Positions 9,567 to 22,996 of a stretch of 32,000 nt of DNA are shown here, piece after piece. The DNA lies in assembly GCA_036787775.1 (NCBI GenBank), contig DAIQOR010000005.1:12289-44288 (forward strand). Direction: 5' to 3'. The DNA is from a bacterium. Its GTDB lineage: Archaea > Nanobdellota > Nanobdellia > Pacearchaeales > GW2011-AR1. Made by a program: the position numbers and the translations under genes. The notes under the pieces were generated by a model. It ran no database searches. It was given only the letters and a program-made list of their open reading frames with translations, and was not told where the DNA came from. Every line of letters starts with the position of its first letter. Position 1 is the stretch's first letter.

Positions 9567-10346
9567 TTAAAAAGAAAACCTGAACCCAAATTCCATTCCA
9601 TAACTACCAATATCTATTTTTGTATCTCCTTCCCCAATATTCACTGAACTATATTTAAGTTGAAGATAAGCAAAAGATTCAAACCCGACCATGCTCATGA
9701 ACCCCGTTCCAGAATCACTAAAATCTTCTGAAATTGAAGTATTATCCATACAATATCTTTTAATTAAACAACTACCATCTCTCACCTCGCCATCAATACT
9801 TTCCTTAACGGTCGCATTTACCAACCCTCCTCCAAAATAAATCTTAAAATCATCTTTAATCTTATGAGTATAAACTCCCAAAAATTCAAGTTGAGTGATA
9901 GTCAAACTTGCTTCATCAATAACATAATCACCAAAATCCTCATCTCTGATTATATTATTTGAATAATTAAGCCCCATTTCAAACCGAAACCTCGGATCAA
10001 AATTATACCCAGAAGAAATTCTAAATCCAGTTTGATCCCCATAAAATTTATCTATATCACTATCATTAAATTTCCCCAAAGGAGAAACCCCAAAAGAAAT
10101 GTGAGCTTTTTTTCTATTTTCATCTTCAGAATTTTGTGCTTCAGTTTTATTTGAATAATTAACATTTGTTCTCTGATCCTCGGGCACAACAGCTTCATCT
10201 GAACTCTCAACATATCCCTCCGGAGCATCAGTTCTAAAAGGCATTATCAAACTTCTATCTCCAGCAGAAGCACTCGGCAAATAACTAACAACACCAATCG
10301 CTCCAGCAACACCGACACTTAATAATTTCTTAACTAATCCATTCAT
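9567..10346 (-). CDS. secreted protein resembling a bacterial 8-stranded outer-membrane beta-barrel (OmpA/OmpW/PF13505-like)
   Basis: The track ORF is 9567..10367 with a non-ATG start. The likely start is the internal ATG (MNGLVKKLLSVGVAGAIGVVSYLPSASA/GD, a signal peptide), because a shared TATA box lies at about 10369-10376. The protein shows repeated amphipathic strands (FRFEMGLNYS, LEFLGVYTHKI, FKIYFGGGLVNA, FAYLQLKYSS) and ends in ...YGMEFGFRFSF, a terminal aromatic signature. Confidence 0.5.
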   Translation of the reverse strand: MNGLVKKLLSVGVAGAIGVVSYLPSASAGDRSLIMPFRTDAPEGYVESSDEAVVPEDQRTNVNYSNKTEAQNSEDENRKKAHISFGVSPLGKFNDSDIDKFYGDQTGFRISSGYNFDPRFRFEMGLNYSNNIIRDEDFGDYVIDEASLTITQLEFLGVYTHKIKDDFKIYFGGGLVNATVKESIDGEVRDGSCLIKRYCMDNTSISEDFSDSGTGFMSMVGFESFAYLQLKYSSVNIGEGDTKIDIGSYGMEFGFRFSF

Positions 10347-10368
10347 AAAATAAAAAAAATAAAACACT

Positions 10369-10396: not shown

Positions 10397-11005
10397 ATGA
10401 CATCCAAAACAATAGCCCAAGGAGCCGAAGCAAAAATATTTCTATCAGAAAATTTAATCACCAAGGACAGAATCCCAAAATCTTACAGAATCCCCGAACT
10501 AGACAACATGCTTCGTAAAAGACGAACAAAATCCGAAACAAAACTTTTAATCAAAGCATCAAAAATTATCCCCACTCCAATACCTCAAGAATCAAAAGAA
10601 TTCGACAAAATAATAATGCCTTTCATCGACGGAAAAAAACTCTCCAAACATCTCAACACATTTCCTCTTGCAAAACAAAAACAAATTCTAAAACAAATCG
10701 GAAACTCAGTCGCAAAACTCCACAACGCAGACATAATCCACGGCGACCTCACAACAAGTAATATGATTTTATCACAAGAAAAAAAAATTTTCTTCATAGA
10801 CTTCGGACTCGGATACGAAAGCAGAAAAAACGAAGACAAAGCCGTCGACATTCATTTACTAAAACAAGCCCTCGAAGCAAAACATTTCAAAAGCGGGGAA
10901 ACACTTTTCAAAGAATTTAAAAAAGGATATTCAAAATCAAAAGATTCCAAAATAATTTTCAAAAGATTAAACGCCGTTGAAAAGAGAGGGAGATATAAAC
11001 ATTAA
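10397..11005 (+). CDS. bud32: Kae1-associated serine/threonine kinase Bud32 (KEOPS subunit)
   Basis: 202 aa. It has QGAEAKI (the Gly-loop equivalent), the catalytic HGDLTTSNMIL and IDFGLG, and a small RIO-like size. Confidence 0.85.
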   Translation: MTSKTIAQGAEAKIFLSENLITKDRIPKSYRIPELDNMLRKRRTKSETKLLIKASKIIPTPIPQESKEFDKIIMPFIDGKKLSKHLNTFPLAKQKQILKQIGNSVAKLHNADIIHGDLTTSNMILSQEKKIFFIDFGLGYESRKNEDKAVDIHLLKQALEAKHFKSGETLFKEFKKGYSKSKDSKIIFKRLNAVEKRGRYKH

Positions 11006-11007
11006 AC

Positions 11008-11679
11008 TTAAAATACACTTCTTTCAGTTAATAATCTTGTACTAAATCTTTTCTCGAGCATATTACAAACATCTAAAACAACATTACCTAAACATCTCTG
11101 TTTATTAAAATCAACTCTCCCAAGATTAATCCAACCTTCCCCAAATTTTCTTTCACCAACATAGGAATTAATATCTCCAATGGAATAAATCCATTCAACA
11201 AAATGCCTATCTATTAAAGAATCAGGAACAATAGATAAGGTATTTACATCACTACCATCAATTTCCATTTTAGCATCCAAATATAAAAGAGAAATAGAAT
11301 TCCTTTGAGAATTCGGGAGTAAAAAACATTCATGAAAAACACCTATATTTTTCCAAATATCATTTTCCTTTAAAGAAACATCATAAGGAGATAACACAAA
11401 AGAAACAGCGTCATAAAGATTAGGATTAGATTCTGCTTTTCTCAAAACTTCTCCAATAAACGAATTGTCATTCTTCGGTTGAAGTATAATTCTCCCCCCA
11501 TATTTAAATTCAAAAGGGTGTTCTTTATGAACTTTCAACAATTGAAATGTTGGAAAATAAACACTCCCTTCATAAGGGGAGTCTTCAAAACAAAAAGACT
11601 TTCTTCCTTTTGTTAAAACAAATCCTTCTTTAATATCTTGACTATAATGAGCAAGTTCGCCATCAATTTGTTCCCACAT
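11008..11679 (-). CDS. hypothetical protein (ORFan cassette 2 next to tRNA-Leu)
   Basis: 223-aa ORF with no family recognised. It has its own TATA-like box about 27 nt upstream, inside repeat unit X. Confidence 0.5.
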   Translation of the reverse strand: MWEQIDGELAHYSQDIKEGFVLTKGRKSFCFEDSPYEGSVYFPTFQLLKVHKEHPFEFKYGGRIILQPKNDNSFIGEVLRKAESNPNLYDAVSFVLSPYDVSLKENDIWKNIGVFHECFLLPNSQRNSISLLYLDAKMEIDGSDVNTLSIVPDSLIDRHFVEWIYSIGDINSYVGERKFGEGWINLGRVDFNKQRCLGNVVLDVCNMLEKRFSTRLLTERSVF

Positions 11680-11700
11680 AACTAAAAAAGAAAATTCAAG

Positions 11701-11770
11701 TTTATATTAATTTGTCTCTAAGAAAATATATTTCAAAATGCGAGAGATAGATTAAAAGTCGTTGAGAAGC
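11701..11770 (-). repeat. repeat unit X (promoter-like AT-rich part plus aaatgcgagagata..., homologous to the tRNA-Leu 3' end and flank)
   Basis: tttatattaatttgtctctaagaaaatata....aaatgcgagagatagattaaaagtcgttgagaa aligns with tttataataatttatcttctaaagaatataaatgcggaagacaaattaggcgtcgtgaacaa at 12059-12125. Confidence 0.6.
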
Positions 11771-11786
11771 ATGGAAGATATAATGG

Positions 11787-12038
11787 TTAATTATCCAAAA
11801 TGGAATCAATTACCTGAACTAATTTAGAATCTTTAACTCTTAATTTCATTCCATCCTTTAAAGGAATGCAAACAGAAAACATCCTTCTATTTTCATCAAG
11901 AGAAGTTCTACTTCCATCATCTATTGTAAGTTCTTCATAACCATTATATCCATGAACTTGGTAACCTTCCTCTTTCACGCTTGGCAATAAAGAAACCCAT
12001 TCTTCCTGACTTAAAACATATTCAGTGATTCTTTTCAT
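11787..12038 (-). CDS. hypothetical protein (ORFan cassette 1 next to tRNA-Leu)
   Basis: 83-aa ORF bracketed by repeat units X and Y. A TATA-like box lies about 28 nt upstream, inside unit Y. Confidence 0.45.
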   Translation of the reverse strand: MKRITEYVLSQEEWVSLLPSVKEEGYQVHGYNGYEELTIDDGSRTSLDENRRMFSVCIPLKDGMKLRVKDSKLVQVIDSILDN

Positions 12039-12058
12039 AAAAAATATCTTTTAATATA

Positions 12059-12174
12059 CTTTATAATAATTTATCTTCTAAAGAATATAAATGCGGAAGA
12101 CAAATTAGGCGTCGTGAACAAATCACTCGCTCGTCCTCCCAAGCGTGGTAGAACGAAACCAACGTAAGCACTAA
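12059..12174 (-). repeat. repeat unit Y, containing an orphan tRNA-Leu 3' fragment whose T-arm is replaced by a ~60-nt GC-rich segment
   Basis: atgcggaagaca (12091-12102) and cgtaagcactaa (12163-12174) are identical to the acceptor 3' strand and variable-arm segments of the intact tRNA-Leu (12243-12254 and 12269-12280). Between them lies aattaggcgtcgtgaacaaatcactcgctcgtcctcccaagcgtggtagaacgaaaccaa where the tRNA has ggattcgaacctg. Confidence 0.7.
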
Positions 12175-12244
12175 AAAATATTTTTTAAATTAAACGATTT
12201 TGCAAATTGAAATCCTTCGGATTAATCTTATTTACAATAAGATA

Positions 12245-12328
12245 TGCGGAAGACAGGATTCGAACCTGCGTAAGCACTAAGCTACAAGAGCCTTAATCTT
12301 GCCCGTTTGACCACTCCGGCACCCCCGC
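12245..12328 (-). tRNA. tRNA-Leu (type II, long variable arm)
   Basis: The minus strand reads GCGGGGGTGCCGGAGTGGTCAAACGGGCAAGATTAAGGCTCTTGTAGCTTAGTGCTTACGCAGGTTCGAATCCTGTCTTCCGCA. Hand fold: acceptor GCGGGGG/CTTCCGC (two G-U pairs), anticodon stem CAAGA/TCTTG, loop UUAAGGC, T-arm GCAGG-TTCGAAT-CCTGT, and a 15-nt variable arm. Canonical numbering gives anticodon AAG; a one-base misread of the loop would give UAA. No CCA is encoded. Confidence 0.85.
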
Positions 12329-12410
12329 ATAATATTATAGAATTTTAACAATTTTTAAGTTTATGCTTAATCAAAAGTCTTATAAATTATTCATCGCTAA
12401 CATAATTTAG

Positions 12411-12483
12411 AGCCCCGTAGTACAGCGGTCAAGTATACTGGCCTTTGAAGCCAGTGACCCCAGTTCGAATCTGGGCGGGGCTA
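12411..12483 (+). tRNA. tRNA-Gln (UUG)
   Basis: AGCCCCGTAGTACAGCGGTCAAGTATACTGGCCTTTGAAGCCAGTGACCCCAGTTCGAATCTGGGCGGGGCTA. Hand fold: A1-U72 acceptor (typical of archaeal Gln), anticodon stem CTGGC/GCCAG, loop CUUUGAA, and T-arm CCCAG-TTCGAAT-CTGGG. Confidence 0.9.
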
Positions 12484-12576
12484 TTTCTATTAGATGAGAA
12501 CTTCGAATCCGAGCAACTCTGAAATTTCTAATAAATGAGCAACAAAAATAAAAAACGAATTTAAAGAAGATTTCAC

Positions 12577-12601
12577 GAGTTGGGAGTCGGGCGGAGCTAT
12601 T
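12577..12601 (+). repeat. decayed copy of the tRNA-Gln 3' end
   Basis: gagttgggagtcgggcggagctatt versus cagttcgaatctggggcggggctatt-like tRNA sequence at 12461-12485, matching at about 18 of 25 positions. It is a GC-rich island in AT-rich spacer. A second T-loop-like relic, cttcgaatccgag, lies at about 12501-12514. Confidence 0.5.
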
Positions 12602-12607
12602 CAAAAA

Positions 12608-13408
12608 TTAATCCCTAAACAATCTGCTGTAATAAATCTCCCGATTCAACGTTTGTTTGTCCGGCCTCATTTTCTTAAAAATATCTTTAATTCTTTTTGG
12701 CTTGTGTGCCTCACCAATCAAAGTTCCAGCCAATTTTTTATACTCGACGCTCGCCTCGGATTTCGGTTTAAAATAAGTCAACGGGACAGACTTAGACAAA
12801 GCTTTCAAAATGTTAATGTCCTCGGGAATAACGGCCATAACTGGCACATCCGAAGTCGTCTCAATATCTTTCAAAGACAACTCAAAATTCTTATTCCGCA
12901 CTTTATTCAAAATCAAACCAATAATCGGAGTGCCCCTTTTCCTCGCCATGTTCACTGCCTTAATAGTGGTCCCTAAAGTAGGAACATCTGGAGTAGTCAC
13001 AACCAAAAGCTCGTCAGAAGCCAACATCGCTGCATAAGTTTCATCATTCATCGAAGGCGAAGTATCAATTAAAACATAATCATATTTATTTTTCCAGTAA
13101 CTTAATTTATCTTTTAACTTGTAAGGATTAATTTCTTTAGGATAATTCATCGACGCTGGAAGCACATGAAACCGCTCACCAAAATCATAAATCGCGTCAG
13201 AAATATTCGCGACCCTATCCAAAACATCATGAATCGTAACCTCAGGATTAATAATATTCAAATGCATTCCCAAATTTGGTGCAGAAAAATTCGCATCCAC
13301 CAAAAGCACTTTCTTACCCAAGCTCGCAATCGCATCACCCAACGCAACAACGCTCGAAGTCTTCCCGACACCACCCTTCAAACTAAACACACCAATACTT
13401 TTCCCCAT
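12608..13408 (-). CDS. MinD/ParA-family P-loop ATPase
   Basis: 266 aa with the deviant Walker A SLKGGVGKTS, then LLVDAN and a Walker B-like YVLIDTSP. A TATA-like box (about 13429-13440) lies 26 nt upstream. Confidence 0.8.
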   Translation of the reverse strand: MGKSIGVFSLKGGVGKTSSVVALGDAIASLGKKVLLVDANFSAPNLGMHLNIINPEVTIHDVLDRVANISDAIYDFGERFHVLPASMNYPKEINPYKLKDKLSYWKNKYDYVLIDTSPSMNDETYAAMLASDELLVVTTPDVPTLGTTIKAVNMARKRGTPIIGLILNKVRNKNFELSLKDIETTSDVPVMAVIPEDINILKALSKSVPLTYFKPKSEASVEYKKLAGTLIGEAHKPKRIKDIFKKMRPDKQTLNREIYYSRLFRD

Positions 13409-22663: not shown

Positions 22664-22996
22664 CTAACTTTTCAAAAAAGAACAAACTTCATTGAGAATA
22701 TTTGAAAAAGAATTTTTATTTAAACTTCCAATTTTATATTTTATCAAAGATTTTTCTATTGATGCAATTTTATCTATTCTAACAAAACTATCTCTTTTCA
22801 AAGAACCTTTCAAAAAATCTTTTTCTTTAATCAAAACTTCAACAGATTTTTCATAAGAAGATCCTGTTATTTGAAGCACAATTAAATCATCTCCTTTGGG
22901 GCATTTCAAAACCAAAACAGGTCTTCTCTTAACTCCAATTAAATTAGAAAAAGGAAAACTCACAACAAGCAAATCTCCAGCTACAAATCTCTCCAC
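22664..22996 (-). CDS. mazF: MazF/PemK-family type II toxin
   Basis: 110 aa. AGDLLVVSFPFSN....KRRPVLVL ... IVLQITGS ... VRIDKIASIEKSLI matches the PemK fold pattern. It overlaps the upstream antitoxin gene by 16 nt. Confidence 0.75.
   Translation of the reverse strand: MERFVAGDLLVVSFPFSNLIGVKRRPVLVLKCPKGDDLIVLQITGSSYEKSVEVLIKEKDFLKGSLKRDSFVRIDKIASIEKSLIKYKIGSLNKNSFSNILNEVCSFLKS

Follow-up and report, generated by a model that had tools for sequence, protein, structure and literature searches.

A broken copy of a tRNA-Leu 3' end in an archaeal genome, a probable insertion scar, and short inserts bounded by tRNA 3'-end copies in DPANN relatives

According to passages in PMC9897764 and in PMC8371274 (the latter citing Williams 2002), viruses, plasmids and genomic islands that integrate into tRNA genes by means of an integrase leave behind partial tRNA genes, as the attachment (att) sites attL and attR. 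Casposons, which integrate through a Cas1-type enzyme, likewise insert at the 3' end of a tRNA gene, next to a T-loop palindrome, and generate a target-site duplication of 14-15 bp (PMC5137440); and in Thermococcales, tRNA-gene att sites have mediated chromosomal inversions (PMC5495485). Here we describe a locus that recalls each of these systems and matches none of them: an interrupted partial copy of the 3' end of a leucine tRNA gene, termed unit Y, which lies a short distance downstream of the intact gene in a 32,000-nucleotide (nt) stretch of archaeal DNA (positions 12,289 to 44,288 of contig DAIQOR010000005.1), referred to throughout as the window. In a preliminary description of this DNA, Y and a second unit, X, were proposed to be the att-like scars of serial integrations at the tRNA-Leu 3' end, each delimiting a cassette of one gene.

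The source of the duplicated sequence is the intact tRNA-Leu(AAG) gene at 12245..12328 on the minus strand (56% GC), already recognised in the preliminary description, called by ARAGORN and matched by Rfam model RF00005 with 49.7 bits. That Y is a partial copy of its 3' end is borne out by two blocks, collinear with the tRNA gene and in the same orientation, which begin 69 nt downstream of it. The first to be met on the minus strand, block 2 (AACCAACGTAAGCACTAA, 12157..12174), matches tRNA-Leu nt 50-67 (12263-12280) at 16 of 18 positions, the last 12 of them without a mismatch, and covers the 3' side of the variable arm and the 5' strand of the T-stem. Block 1 (ATGCGGAAGACA, 12091..12102, also minus) equals 12244-12255 at 12 of 12 positions; it comprises the last 11 nt of the tRNA and one flanking nucleotide, and so covers the 3' end of the T-stem, the 3' strand of the acceptor stem and the discriminator, ending 1 nt past the latter. 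In all the copy spans 37 nt of tRNA-Leu. When the tRNA was aligned locally with its own 260-nt downstream flank, none of 200 shuffles reached the observed score. The exact blocks are separated by 60 nt of 50% GC, as had been described; with the extended block the intervening segment is 54 nt long (12103..12156, minus, 52% GC) and stands in place of 7 nt of the T-loop. The repeat is therefore not one continuous att core but is split within. Neither a second copy of the 54-nt insert in the window nor one in 201 non-identical loci was found, and the insert is unique in this sense. In the AT-rich spacer between tRNA-Leu and Y (12175..12243, minus, 69 nt, 18.8% GC), AATCC-GAA-GGATT forms a small hairpin and GGATTTCAA represents an inverted T-loop copy in degenerate form; on the minus strand the spacer ends in a run of six T residues (12173-12178) that looks like an archaeal terminator and may act as one. 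The region 10991-12620 is 100% identical in 10 independent metagenome contigs, from which it follows that the locus is not an assembly artefact; by the same token, no population variation was seen at the locus among these 10 contigs. We consider it probable, at about 0.6, that Y is a non-functional scar, the displaced and later disrupted 3' end of a tRNA-Leu gene.

The same arrangement in a more regular form is widespread in related genomes. Our sample, about 983 kb of DPANN DNA in all, consists of the related loci L011-L034 and L093-L215, the first of which were fetched through an alignment of MinD; RNA families were sought with the covariance models of Rfam 15 at gathering and E-value thresholds. 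The pattern was first noticed at two tRNA-Ala genes (L023, L025) and a tRNA-Arg gene (L034), each of which is followed by a spacer of 65-70 nt and then by an exact 16-18-nt copy of the 3' end. The spacer-plus-repeat unit is iterated in tandem in L025, and tandem arrays are found also in L097 and L144; within the tRNA-Ala array of L025 a 99-nt run of N (2169-2267, masked in the collection) makes the copy number unreadable. A metagenome scan for tRNA-Leu(AAG), built so that the allele of the window was left out, returned 119 loci, 106 of them distinct. In 15 of the 100 testable loci, 10 nt or more of the last 18 nt of the tRNA recur exactly within 200 nt downstream on the same strand, against 0 in the controls (inverted copies, copies 300-500 nt away, and copies upstream). 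When all tRNAs of the DPANN sample were scanned over the same 200 nt, 32 of 205 distinct genes proved to have their own 3' end repeated exactly, over 10-24 nt, at a distance of 35-170 nt downstream on the same strand; the inverted control gave 0 and the far control 0 of 182. The tRNAs concerned are Leu-AAG/CAA, Arg-CCT/TCT, Gly-TCC, Gln and Ala. Repeat length has its mode at 15-18 nt, and in 26 of the 32 cases the repeat ends at the tRNA end.

The spacers have a recognisable design. Usually the T-loop and T-stem of the host appear in inverted form (GGATTYGAA...) at the start of the spacer, a few bases past the tRNA, which is far more frequent than at tRNAs without a repeat (Mann-Whitney p=2e-9). 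According to fold predictions, the inverted sequence is paired with the repeat and encloses one or two hairpins. Reading the L023 and L025 units against each other, three compensatory double changes are seen in one hairpin. Terminal inverted repeats of their own are not detectable in 22 spacers of the relatives, a set to which the window spacer does not belong (score 4.14, against 4.20 for shuffles), and the spacer units of the relatives have no Rfam match. One spacer family occurs both at tRNA-Leu(AAG) and at tRNA-Gly(TCC), once within the same genome, and each member ends in a copy of its own host's 3' end (L118 5851-5937 and 13921-14039; L141 153-270; L189 11883-11980; L182 45-129). Its members share the motif GATGAGAACC-N-GGTTCGAC(G/A)AGC, followed by a variable hairpin and then by GCGAGC. 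Assignment of the GATGAGAACC motif to a hammerhead ribozyme, a C/D box or a k-turn was considered and dropped by eye, a degenerate inverted T-loop being the better fit.

Filled and empty alleles with exact boundaries were found in three sets of loci: L141 and L132 (flanks 100% identical), L118 compared with L192, L190 and L165 (about 92-93%), and L189 and L119 (97%). In each, the sequence that lies past the distal repeat in the filled allele lies directly after the tRNA in the empty one. The T-stem of the working tRNA in L141 differs from that of the empty allele (TCAGG/CCTGG and GTGGG/CCTTC, respectively), which implies that the whole T-arm was replaced in one event. A more elaborate history is recorded in L013 (5865-6167), where three copies of the 3' end, each more degraded than the one before, lie downstream of a tRNA-Gln gene containing an intron; the spacers between them measure about 24-30 nt and share GAGCAAAGCGAA. 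Bud32 is convergent here, and its stop codon is overlapped by the outermost copy, at the very place occupied by the tRNA end in L018. These degraded copies indicate that serial tRNA-proximal insertion leaving a trail of scars is real in this clade. A layout of tRNA, inverted T-loop copy, short structured spacer, exact 3'-end copy and native flank is thus frequent, orientation-specific, polymorphic and sometimes serial. On the 5' side a mirror-image pattern was observed, in which tRNA nt 1-14 recur 55-113 nt upstream of the gene (L106, L136, L137, L176, L113, L201; L011 8834-8847); in the cases inspected a TATA box lies upstream of the outer copy, and the spacer ends in a sequence resembling the 3' strand of the acceptor stem, CTCCGTCA. 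Among tRNA-Leu loci, 5 of 97 have an upstream copy of the first 12 nt.

These features may be set against those of the known systems. As with the att repeats of integrases, the copies are direct repeats of the 3' part of the tRNA in the same orientation, with an intact gene on one side and a fragment on the other; their starts fall within or close to the T-arm, and their ends coincide with the end of the tRNA or lie just beyond it; and a variant at the 5' half is known both from the literature (pTN3-like integrases) and from the present DPANN loci. In contrast to integrase products, the distance from tRNA to fragment is 69 nt in the window and 35-170 nt in the relatives, rather than kilobases; only 69 non-coding nt, with neither an integrase nor an element, separate the tRNA from Y; the DPANN spacers form small conserved structured families that start with an inverted T-loop; and the repeat in Y is interrupted. 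With casposons, the loci share as target a tRNA 3' end adjoining the T-loop palindrome, a duplication of similar size (mode 15-18 nt here) and a directional, tRNA-proximal and possibly serial mode of insertion. They differ from casposons in that the DPANN spacers lack terminal inverted repeats, the only inverted repeat being the one that pairs the start of the spacer with the T-loop, and in that the duplication lies almost wholly inside the tRNA, compared with a 5-bp tRNA overlap in the casposon; the length of the duplication depends here on where the T-loop boundary is drawn (exact repeats 10-24 nt; Y 37 nt). No casposase, Cas1 or PolB gene was seen in the window and about 10 kb beyond it. 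The resemblance to casposons may be taken as a lead, not as a test. Integrases and casposons are the closest precedents, yet their defining features, a recombinase-bearing element and terminal inverted repeats, are absent wherever tested.

The surroundings of Y have themselves been rearranged. The nearest relative, represented by L011 and L012 (MinD 79% identical), retains the flanking synteny and differs in the interval between MinD and Bud32, which, in the orientation of the window, reads Bud32(+), a 30-nt spacer, tRNA-Leu(+), a CNNM gene(-), a copy of the tRNA-Gln 3' end, tRNA-Gln(-) and MinD(-). The order in the window is Bud32(+), the gene for a 223-residue (223-aa) protein(-), X, an 83-aa open reading frame (ORF)(-), Y(-), the spacer, tRNA-Leu(-), tRNA-Gln(+), its trailer and MinD(-). 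Both tRNA genes thus have the opposite orientation in the relative, which carries the CNNM gene at this locus; no remnant of that gene was detected in the window. The prediction that the locus would vary between relatives has in this way been confirmed, and the CNNM gene and the flipped tRNAs together mark the Bud32-MinD interval as a rearrangement hotspot. More distant relatives also keep MinD, tRNA-Gln and Bud32 together, with tRNA-Gln in either orientation, and in L018 the Bud32 stop codon abuts the 3' end of tRNA-Gln. The place of tRNA-Gln (window 12411-12483) beside MinD is conserved while its orientation flips (L011, L015, L016, L018, L020, L014).

Comparison with L011 leads us to infer an inversion. 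A leader of about 30 nt at 12330..12363 (minus) is homologous to the spacer between Bud32 and tRNA-Leu in L011 (ACTTAAAAATT...) and is inverted relative to Bud32; by blastn, window and L011 are 78% identical over 139 nt spanning tRNA-Leu and this spacer, and the inverted repeat was detected within the window too. Sequence similar to the ACTTAAAAATT... spacer is found also after the present Bud32 stop codon, so a segment consisting of Bud32 tail plus spacer would appear to be present twice. The first copy is the current Bud32 3' end with about 20 nt past the stop (ACTTAAAATACACTTCTTTC, 10964..11025, plus), as seen by alignment and blastn. The leader would mark one end of an inverted block at about 11791-12365 that takes in leader, tRNA-Leu, spacer, Y and the 83-aa ORF, and the tRNA-Gln block has probably been inverted as well. 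As in the Thermococcales inversions, tRNA genes border the inverted segments, tRNA-Leu and tRNA-Gln being flipped between the window and its relatives; the differences are that the segments measure a few hundred bases here, that the breakpoints which can be mapped lie outside the tRNA bodies, and that no integrase is known for these genomes.

The tRNA-Gln(TTG) gene and its trailer (12411..12599, plus) show a degenerate form of the design described above. In the trailer, GATGAGAAC represents an inverted T-loop in degenerate form and TTCGAATCCGAGC (12502-12514) a copy of the T-loop; a long hairpin follows, and then GGGCGGAGCTA (12589-12599), which matches the last 11 nt of the tRNA at 10 of 11 positions and is separated from the MinD stop codon by 8 nt. 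Taken alone this repeat is not significant (p=0.09); it gains support from the recurrence of the layout at tRNA-Gln of L011 (p=0.01) and of L013. No similarity was found between the window spacer, the insert or the tRNA-Gln trailer and the spacer families of other genomes.

Unit X is a scar of another kind than Y. The repeat match between them that had been noted proves to be no stronger than that between other pairs of promoter regions in the window. The best local alignment is limited to the AT-rich promoter part (11701-11730 with 12060-12089, score 29); this score was reached by 2 of 1000 dinucleotide shuffles, and other parts of the window score 28-29 against X. Among 528 pairs of upstream regions in the window the X-Y pair scores 21, compared with a mean of 11.3 (sd 2.9) and values of up to 21-23 for unrelated pairs. 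A tRNA-like 14-mer in X, aaatgcgagagata (11736-11749), matches Y at 11 of 14 positions, which by our estimate is marginal. Most of it lies in the upstream (promoter) region of the 223-aa gene (11680..11745, minus), whose similarity to Y is within the range for unrelated promoters. The candidacy of X as a tRNA-Leu scar was rejected on the ground that it is indistinguishable from this background. What X does contain is the end of a gene for Bud32, the Kae1-associated kinase. The plus strand at 11740-11790 translates as ARDRLKVVEKHGRYNG followed by a stop, and Bud32 orthologues end in RLKAVEKRGRY(K/R)(H/G) and a stop; the pseudo-copy itself, comprising about the last 14 codons and the stop, occupies 11746..11790 (plus). 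By blastn X is 86% identical over 42 nt (E=0.001), or 84% over 45 nt, to the Bud32 3' end of L011, and a profile of eight orthologous Bud32 tails, run against the six-frame translation of the window, ranks X second only to Bud32 itself (16.4 bits, E=5e-4), the similarity being in frame and terminated by a stop. Profile hit and DNA identity together identify X as a leftover gene end, a stranded second copy of the Bud32 3' end beside the promoter of the resident 223-aa gene. By our count the remnant is about 86% identical to the functional Bud32 tail of L011, to which the functional tail of the window itself is about 79% identical. The insert of Y was considered as a third such remnant, an in-frame KLGVVNKSLARPPKRGRTKPT followed by a stop being suggestive, and was rejected: the Bud32-tail profile gives 0.9 bits (E=36), with only KRGR aligning.

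Both ORFs lie where they had been placed, with AT-rich TATA-like boxes about 24-37 nt upstream of their ATG codons, as described; of the two genes that had been called ORFans, only the shorter deserves the name. The 223-aa gene (11008..11679, minus) is convergent on Bud32 and belongs to a conserved DPANN family: an exhaustive HMMER search of 1.8 billion representatives yielded 45 homologues of 200-235 aa, the best 43% identical, where a word-indexed search had returned self-hits only for both ORFs. One homologue (P0125, 39% identical) is convergent on Bud32 with a 4-nt gap, in the same neighbourhood as in the window, beside S15, GAN and eIF2alpha; in all, convergence of this gene on Bud32 is seen in two distant genomes. 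Homologues and synteny with Bud32 together indicate a conserved resident gene and not a recent cassette. Its AlphaFold (AF2) model, predicted from the family alignment, is confident, with a pLDDT (predicted local distance difference test) of 93.4, a single-sequence model having been useless; the predicted fold has no match in the PDB, and the protein no Pfam family. The 83-aa ORF (11787..12038, minus) is of uncertain reality, without a Pfam hit and matching only itself among 5.8 billion proteins. Its AT-rich upstream region (12039..12090, minus) has a TATA-like box about 24-33 nt before the ATG and, to judge by position, may serve as a promoter.

If Y is the scar that we take it to be, its history might run as follows. 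A short segment would have inserted at the end of tRNA-Leu with target duplication, so that the last 37 nt or so, from variable arm to discriminator, were doubled. The proximal copy would have completed the working tRNA, while the distal copy, the future Y, stayed at the old downstream flank, now the TATA region of the 83-aa ORF. In the T-loop of the distal copy, 54 nt of GC-rich sequence would then have been inserted in place of 7 nt, and the whole block of leader, tRNA-Leu, spacer, Y and 83-aa ORF would finally have been inverted relative to Bud32. All of these steps, their order and the manner of insertion are what we infer; the most likely mechanism, which is conjecture, would be a recombination or integration event that targets the T-arm and 3' end and duplicates about 12-18 nt there. 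On the best-supported reading, Y would do no more than lie upstream of the putative promoter of the 83-aa ORF. Several observations weigh against this account. The repeat in Y is interrupted, unlike most of the other cases; the inverted T-loop copy in its spacer is degenerate and displaced, and the spacer shows no similarity to the spacer families of other genomes. Neither Y nor its spacer nor the 54-nt insert was found in any relative, and no empty-site allele of the window locus, in which tRNA-Leu would be followed directly by TTATATTCTTTAG..., was found among them. Domain searches of the window proteins revealed no integrase, transposase or Cas1, and a search of the 106 distinct loci for kilobase-scale elements flanked by tRNA-Leu repeats found none, only paralogous tRNA-Leu genes. 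Lastly, the fold predicted for Y has a minimum free energy of -26.8 kcal/mol, compared with -18.9 +/- 2.7 for shuffles (z -2.9), with 2 of 200 shuffles as stable; such stability, and the richness in GC, would also fit a structured RNA.

That last possibility is in our view unlikely, though it is the likeliest of the alternatives. Y, or its insert plus the copy of the acceptor strand, would on this view be a structured RNA with a function, or else a selfish structured element, of the class of the DPANN spacer-plus-repeat units. In that class a closing stem joins the first part of the spacer to the repeat, and the unit could be a substrate for the enzymes that act on tRNA ends, or could be recognised as DNA by a recombinase. 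Besides the fold, for which the folding check proposed earlier gave a result more stable than shuffles, there is the composition of the insert (52% GC in a window of 32.6%) and the pairing that GGAGGACG in the insert can form with the acceptor-strand copy UGUCUUCC around a small hairpin, in the manner of the three-way-junction folds of the L023, L025 and L034 units; the compensatory changes between L023 and L025, and the conservation of spacer families across genomes and tRNA types, point the same way for the class. Against this, the z-score is modest, Y has no Rfam match, and the insert has no homologue in the window, in the fetched loci or in viral contigs on which covariation could be assessed. 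The T6 run before Y and the promoter-like box after it suggest, moreover, that Y is probably not transcribed as a unit. The spacer-plus-repeat class at large could instead be structured RNAs that use tRNA-end processing; for Y itself this is a minority possibility. Rather less probable is the array of one-gene cassettes first proposed, in which repeated integrase-type integrations at the tRNA-Leu 3' end left Y and X as boundaries. Its appeal is plain: Y is a real 3'-end copy, X offers the 11/14 match to the acceptor block of Y and a collinear AT-rich match, the nearest relative has other content at the locus, serial scars are found at the ends of other tRNAs, and tRNA gene fragments due to element integration are well documented (PMC9897764, PMC8371274). 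Y as a scar of insertion or duplication survives from that proposal, as do serial scars, at other tRNAs (L013, L144, L025); X as a tRNA-Leu scar does not, since its similarity to Y does not rise above that of unrelated promoter regions and its significant content is the Bud32 remnant. The cassettes fare no better, for only 69 nt lie between tRNA and copy, both ORFs lie outside this interval, and the 223-aa gene, being conserved and having kept its place beside Bud32 in a distantly related genome, is not a recent arrival. Nor was an integrase found in the window, or an att match in viral contigs; an exact-pattern search of 2.9 million such contigs for the 54-nt insert and the tRNA-Leu 3' 36-mer found neither.

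The preliminary description had also raised the thought that the GC-rich insert might be a relic of a non-canonical tRNA intron or a split-tRNA half. Y would then be the relic or active half of a disrupted tRNA, either one with a T-loop intron bounded by a bulge-helix-bulge (BHB) motif or the 3' half of a split tRNA. As in the archaeal non-canonical intron-containing, split and permuted tRNAs, extra sequence sits exactly in the T-loop of a tRNA-like fragment, and canonical introns do occur in the clade (tRNA-Gln in L014 and L013). We nevertheless regard this as very improbable. Even when introns of 0-120 nt are allowed and thresholds set at 70-80%, Y yields no tRNA call from ARAGORN; a custom scan for hBHBh' motifs found none spanning the insert, its one weak hit being internal, 31 nt long and not such as to excise it; Rfam, too, was negative. 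The two blocks, when joined, are seen on reading the sequence to have neither a T-loop nor a pairable T-stem, so that no T-arm can be reconstituted; Y has no 5' half, D-arm or anticodon arm, no 5'-half partner was found in the window, and an intact tRNA-Leu(AAG) stands 69 nt away. There remains chance similarity in AT-rich DNA, for which X alone speaks, its scores being within the background for promoter pairs. For Y the idea has already been refuted, and its standing overall is negligible: two collinear blocks (12/12 and 16/18) fall in GC-rich tRNA sequence, with none of the 200 shuffles equalling them, and the layout recurs at 32 of 205 tRNAs with controls of zero.

The genome in which all this is found is that of an AT-rich DPANN archaeon of Pacearchaeota/Nanoarchaeota type. 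Around the locus lie housekeeping genes of archaeal kind (SRP54, FtsY, the Bud32 kinase, a MinD-like ATPase, S15, GAN/RecJ, eIF2alpha and RadA), and the nearest named MinD homologues come from Pacearchaeota and Nanoarchaeota bins. ARAGORN and Rfam agree on two divergent tRNA genes in the window, tRNA-Leu(AAG) on the minus and tRNA-Gln(TTG) on the plus strand; these two alone match Rfam in the window in searches up to E=10, and the window and 14 related loci together gave only tRNAs and 5S rRNA. Unexpected in an archaeal genome is a 266-aa protein (9567-10367, minus) that matches the bacterial outer-membrane beta-barrel domain PF13505 (E=2.2e-9). Genes of toxin-antitoxin type were also seen, a MazF/PemK-like toxin and a nucleotidyltransferase/HepT pair, at 22664-22996 of the window and at 9317-9953 of L215, the latter just past the window's left end; the HepT gene of the pair is apparently split into two ORFs.

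It is tempting to go further and to group Y with the 32 analogous cases as an undescribed class of miniature structured insertions of 35-170 nt, which in DPANN archaea would seek out the 3' end of tRNA genes close to the T-loop (there being a 5' counterpart), duplicate about 12-18 nt and start with the inverted T-loop of the host. Such units might be mobilised in trans by a recombinase or a Cas1-like integrase, or might be tRNA-linked small RNAs that borrow end-processing signals, and serial insertion would build short 'repeat-spacer' arrays. This proposal is tentative, and we think it possible rather than probable.

The locus as a whole is best seen as a patchwork of small rearrangements, made up of a disrupted tRNA-end duplicate, a stranded Bud32 end and two flipped tRNAs, and not as an integron-like cassette array. 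Y itself is a modest scar; the wider tRNA 3'-end pattern is the more interesting result, about one in six of the sampled DPANN tRNA genes carrying a short structured insert with a repeat of the gene's own 3' end as its boundary. To our knowledge, the elements left by integrases and casposons, which act at this same site of tRNA genes, are of kilobase size, and we know of no mechanism for inserts as small as these. The inserts matter for the annotation of tRNA genes and for the interpretation of synteny breaks in DPANN genome bins; and, if they are mobile or made into RNA, they would represent a new kind of tRNA-associated element in very small genomes.

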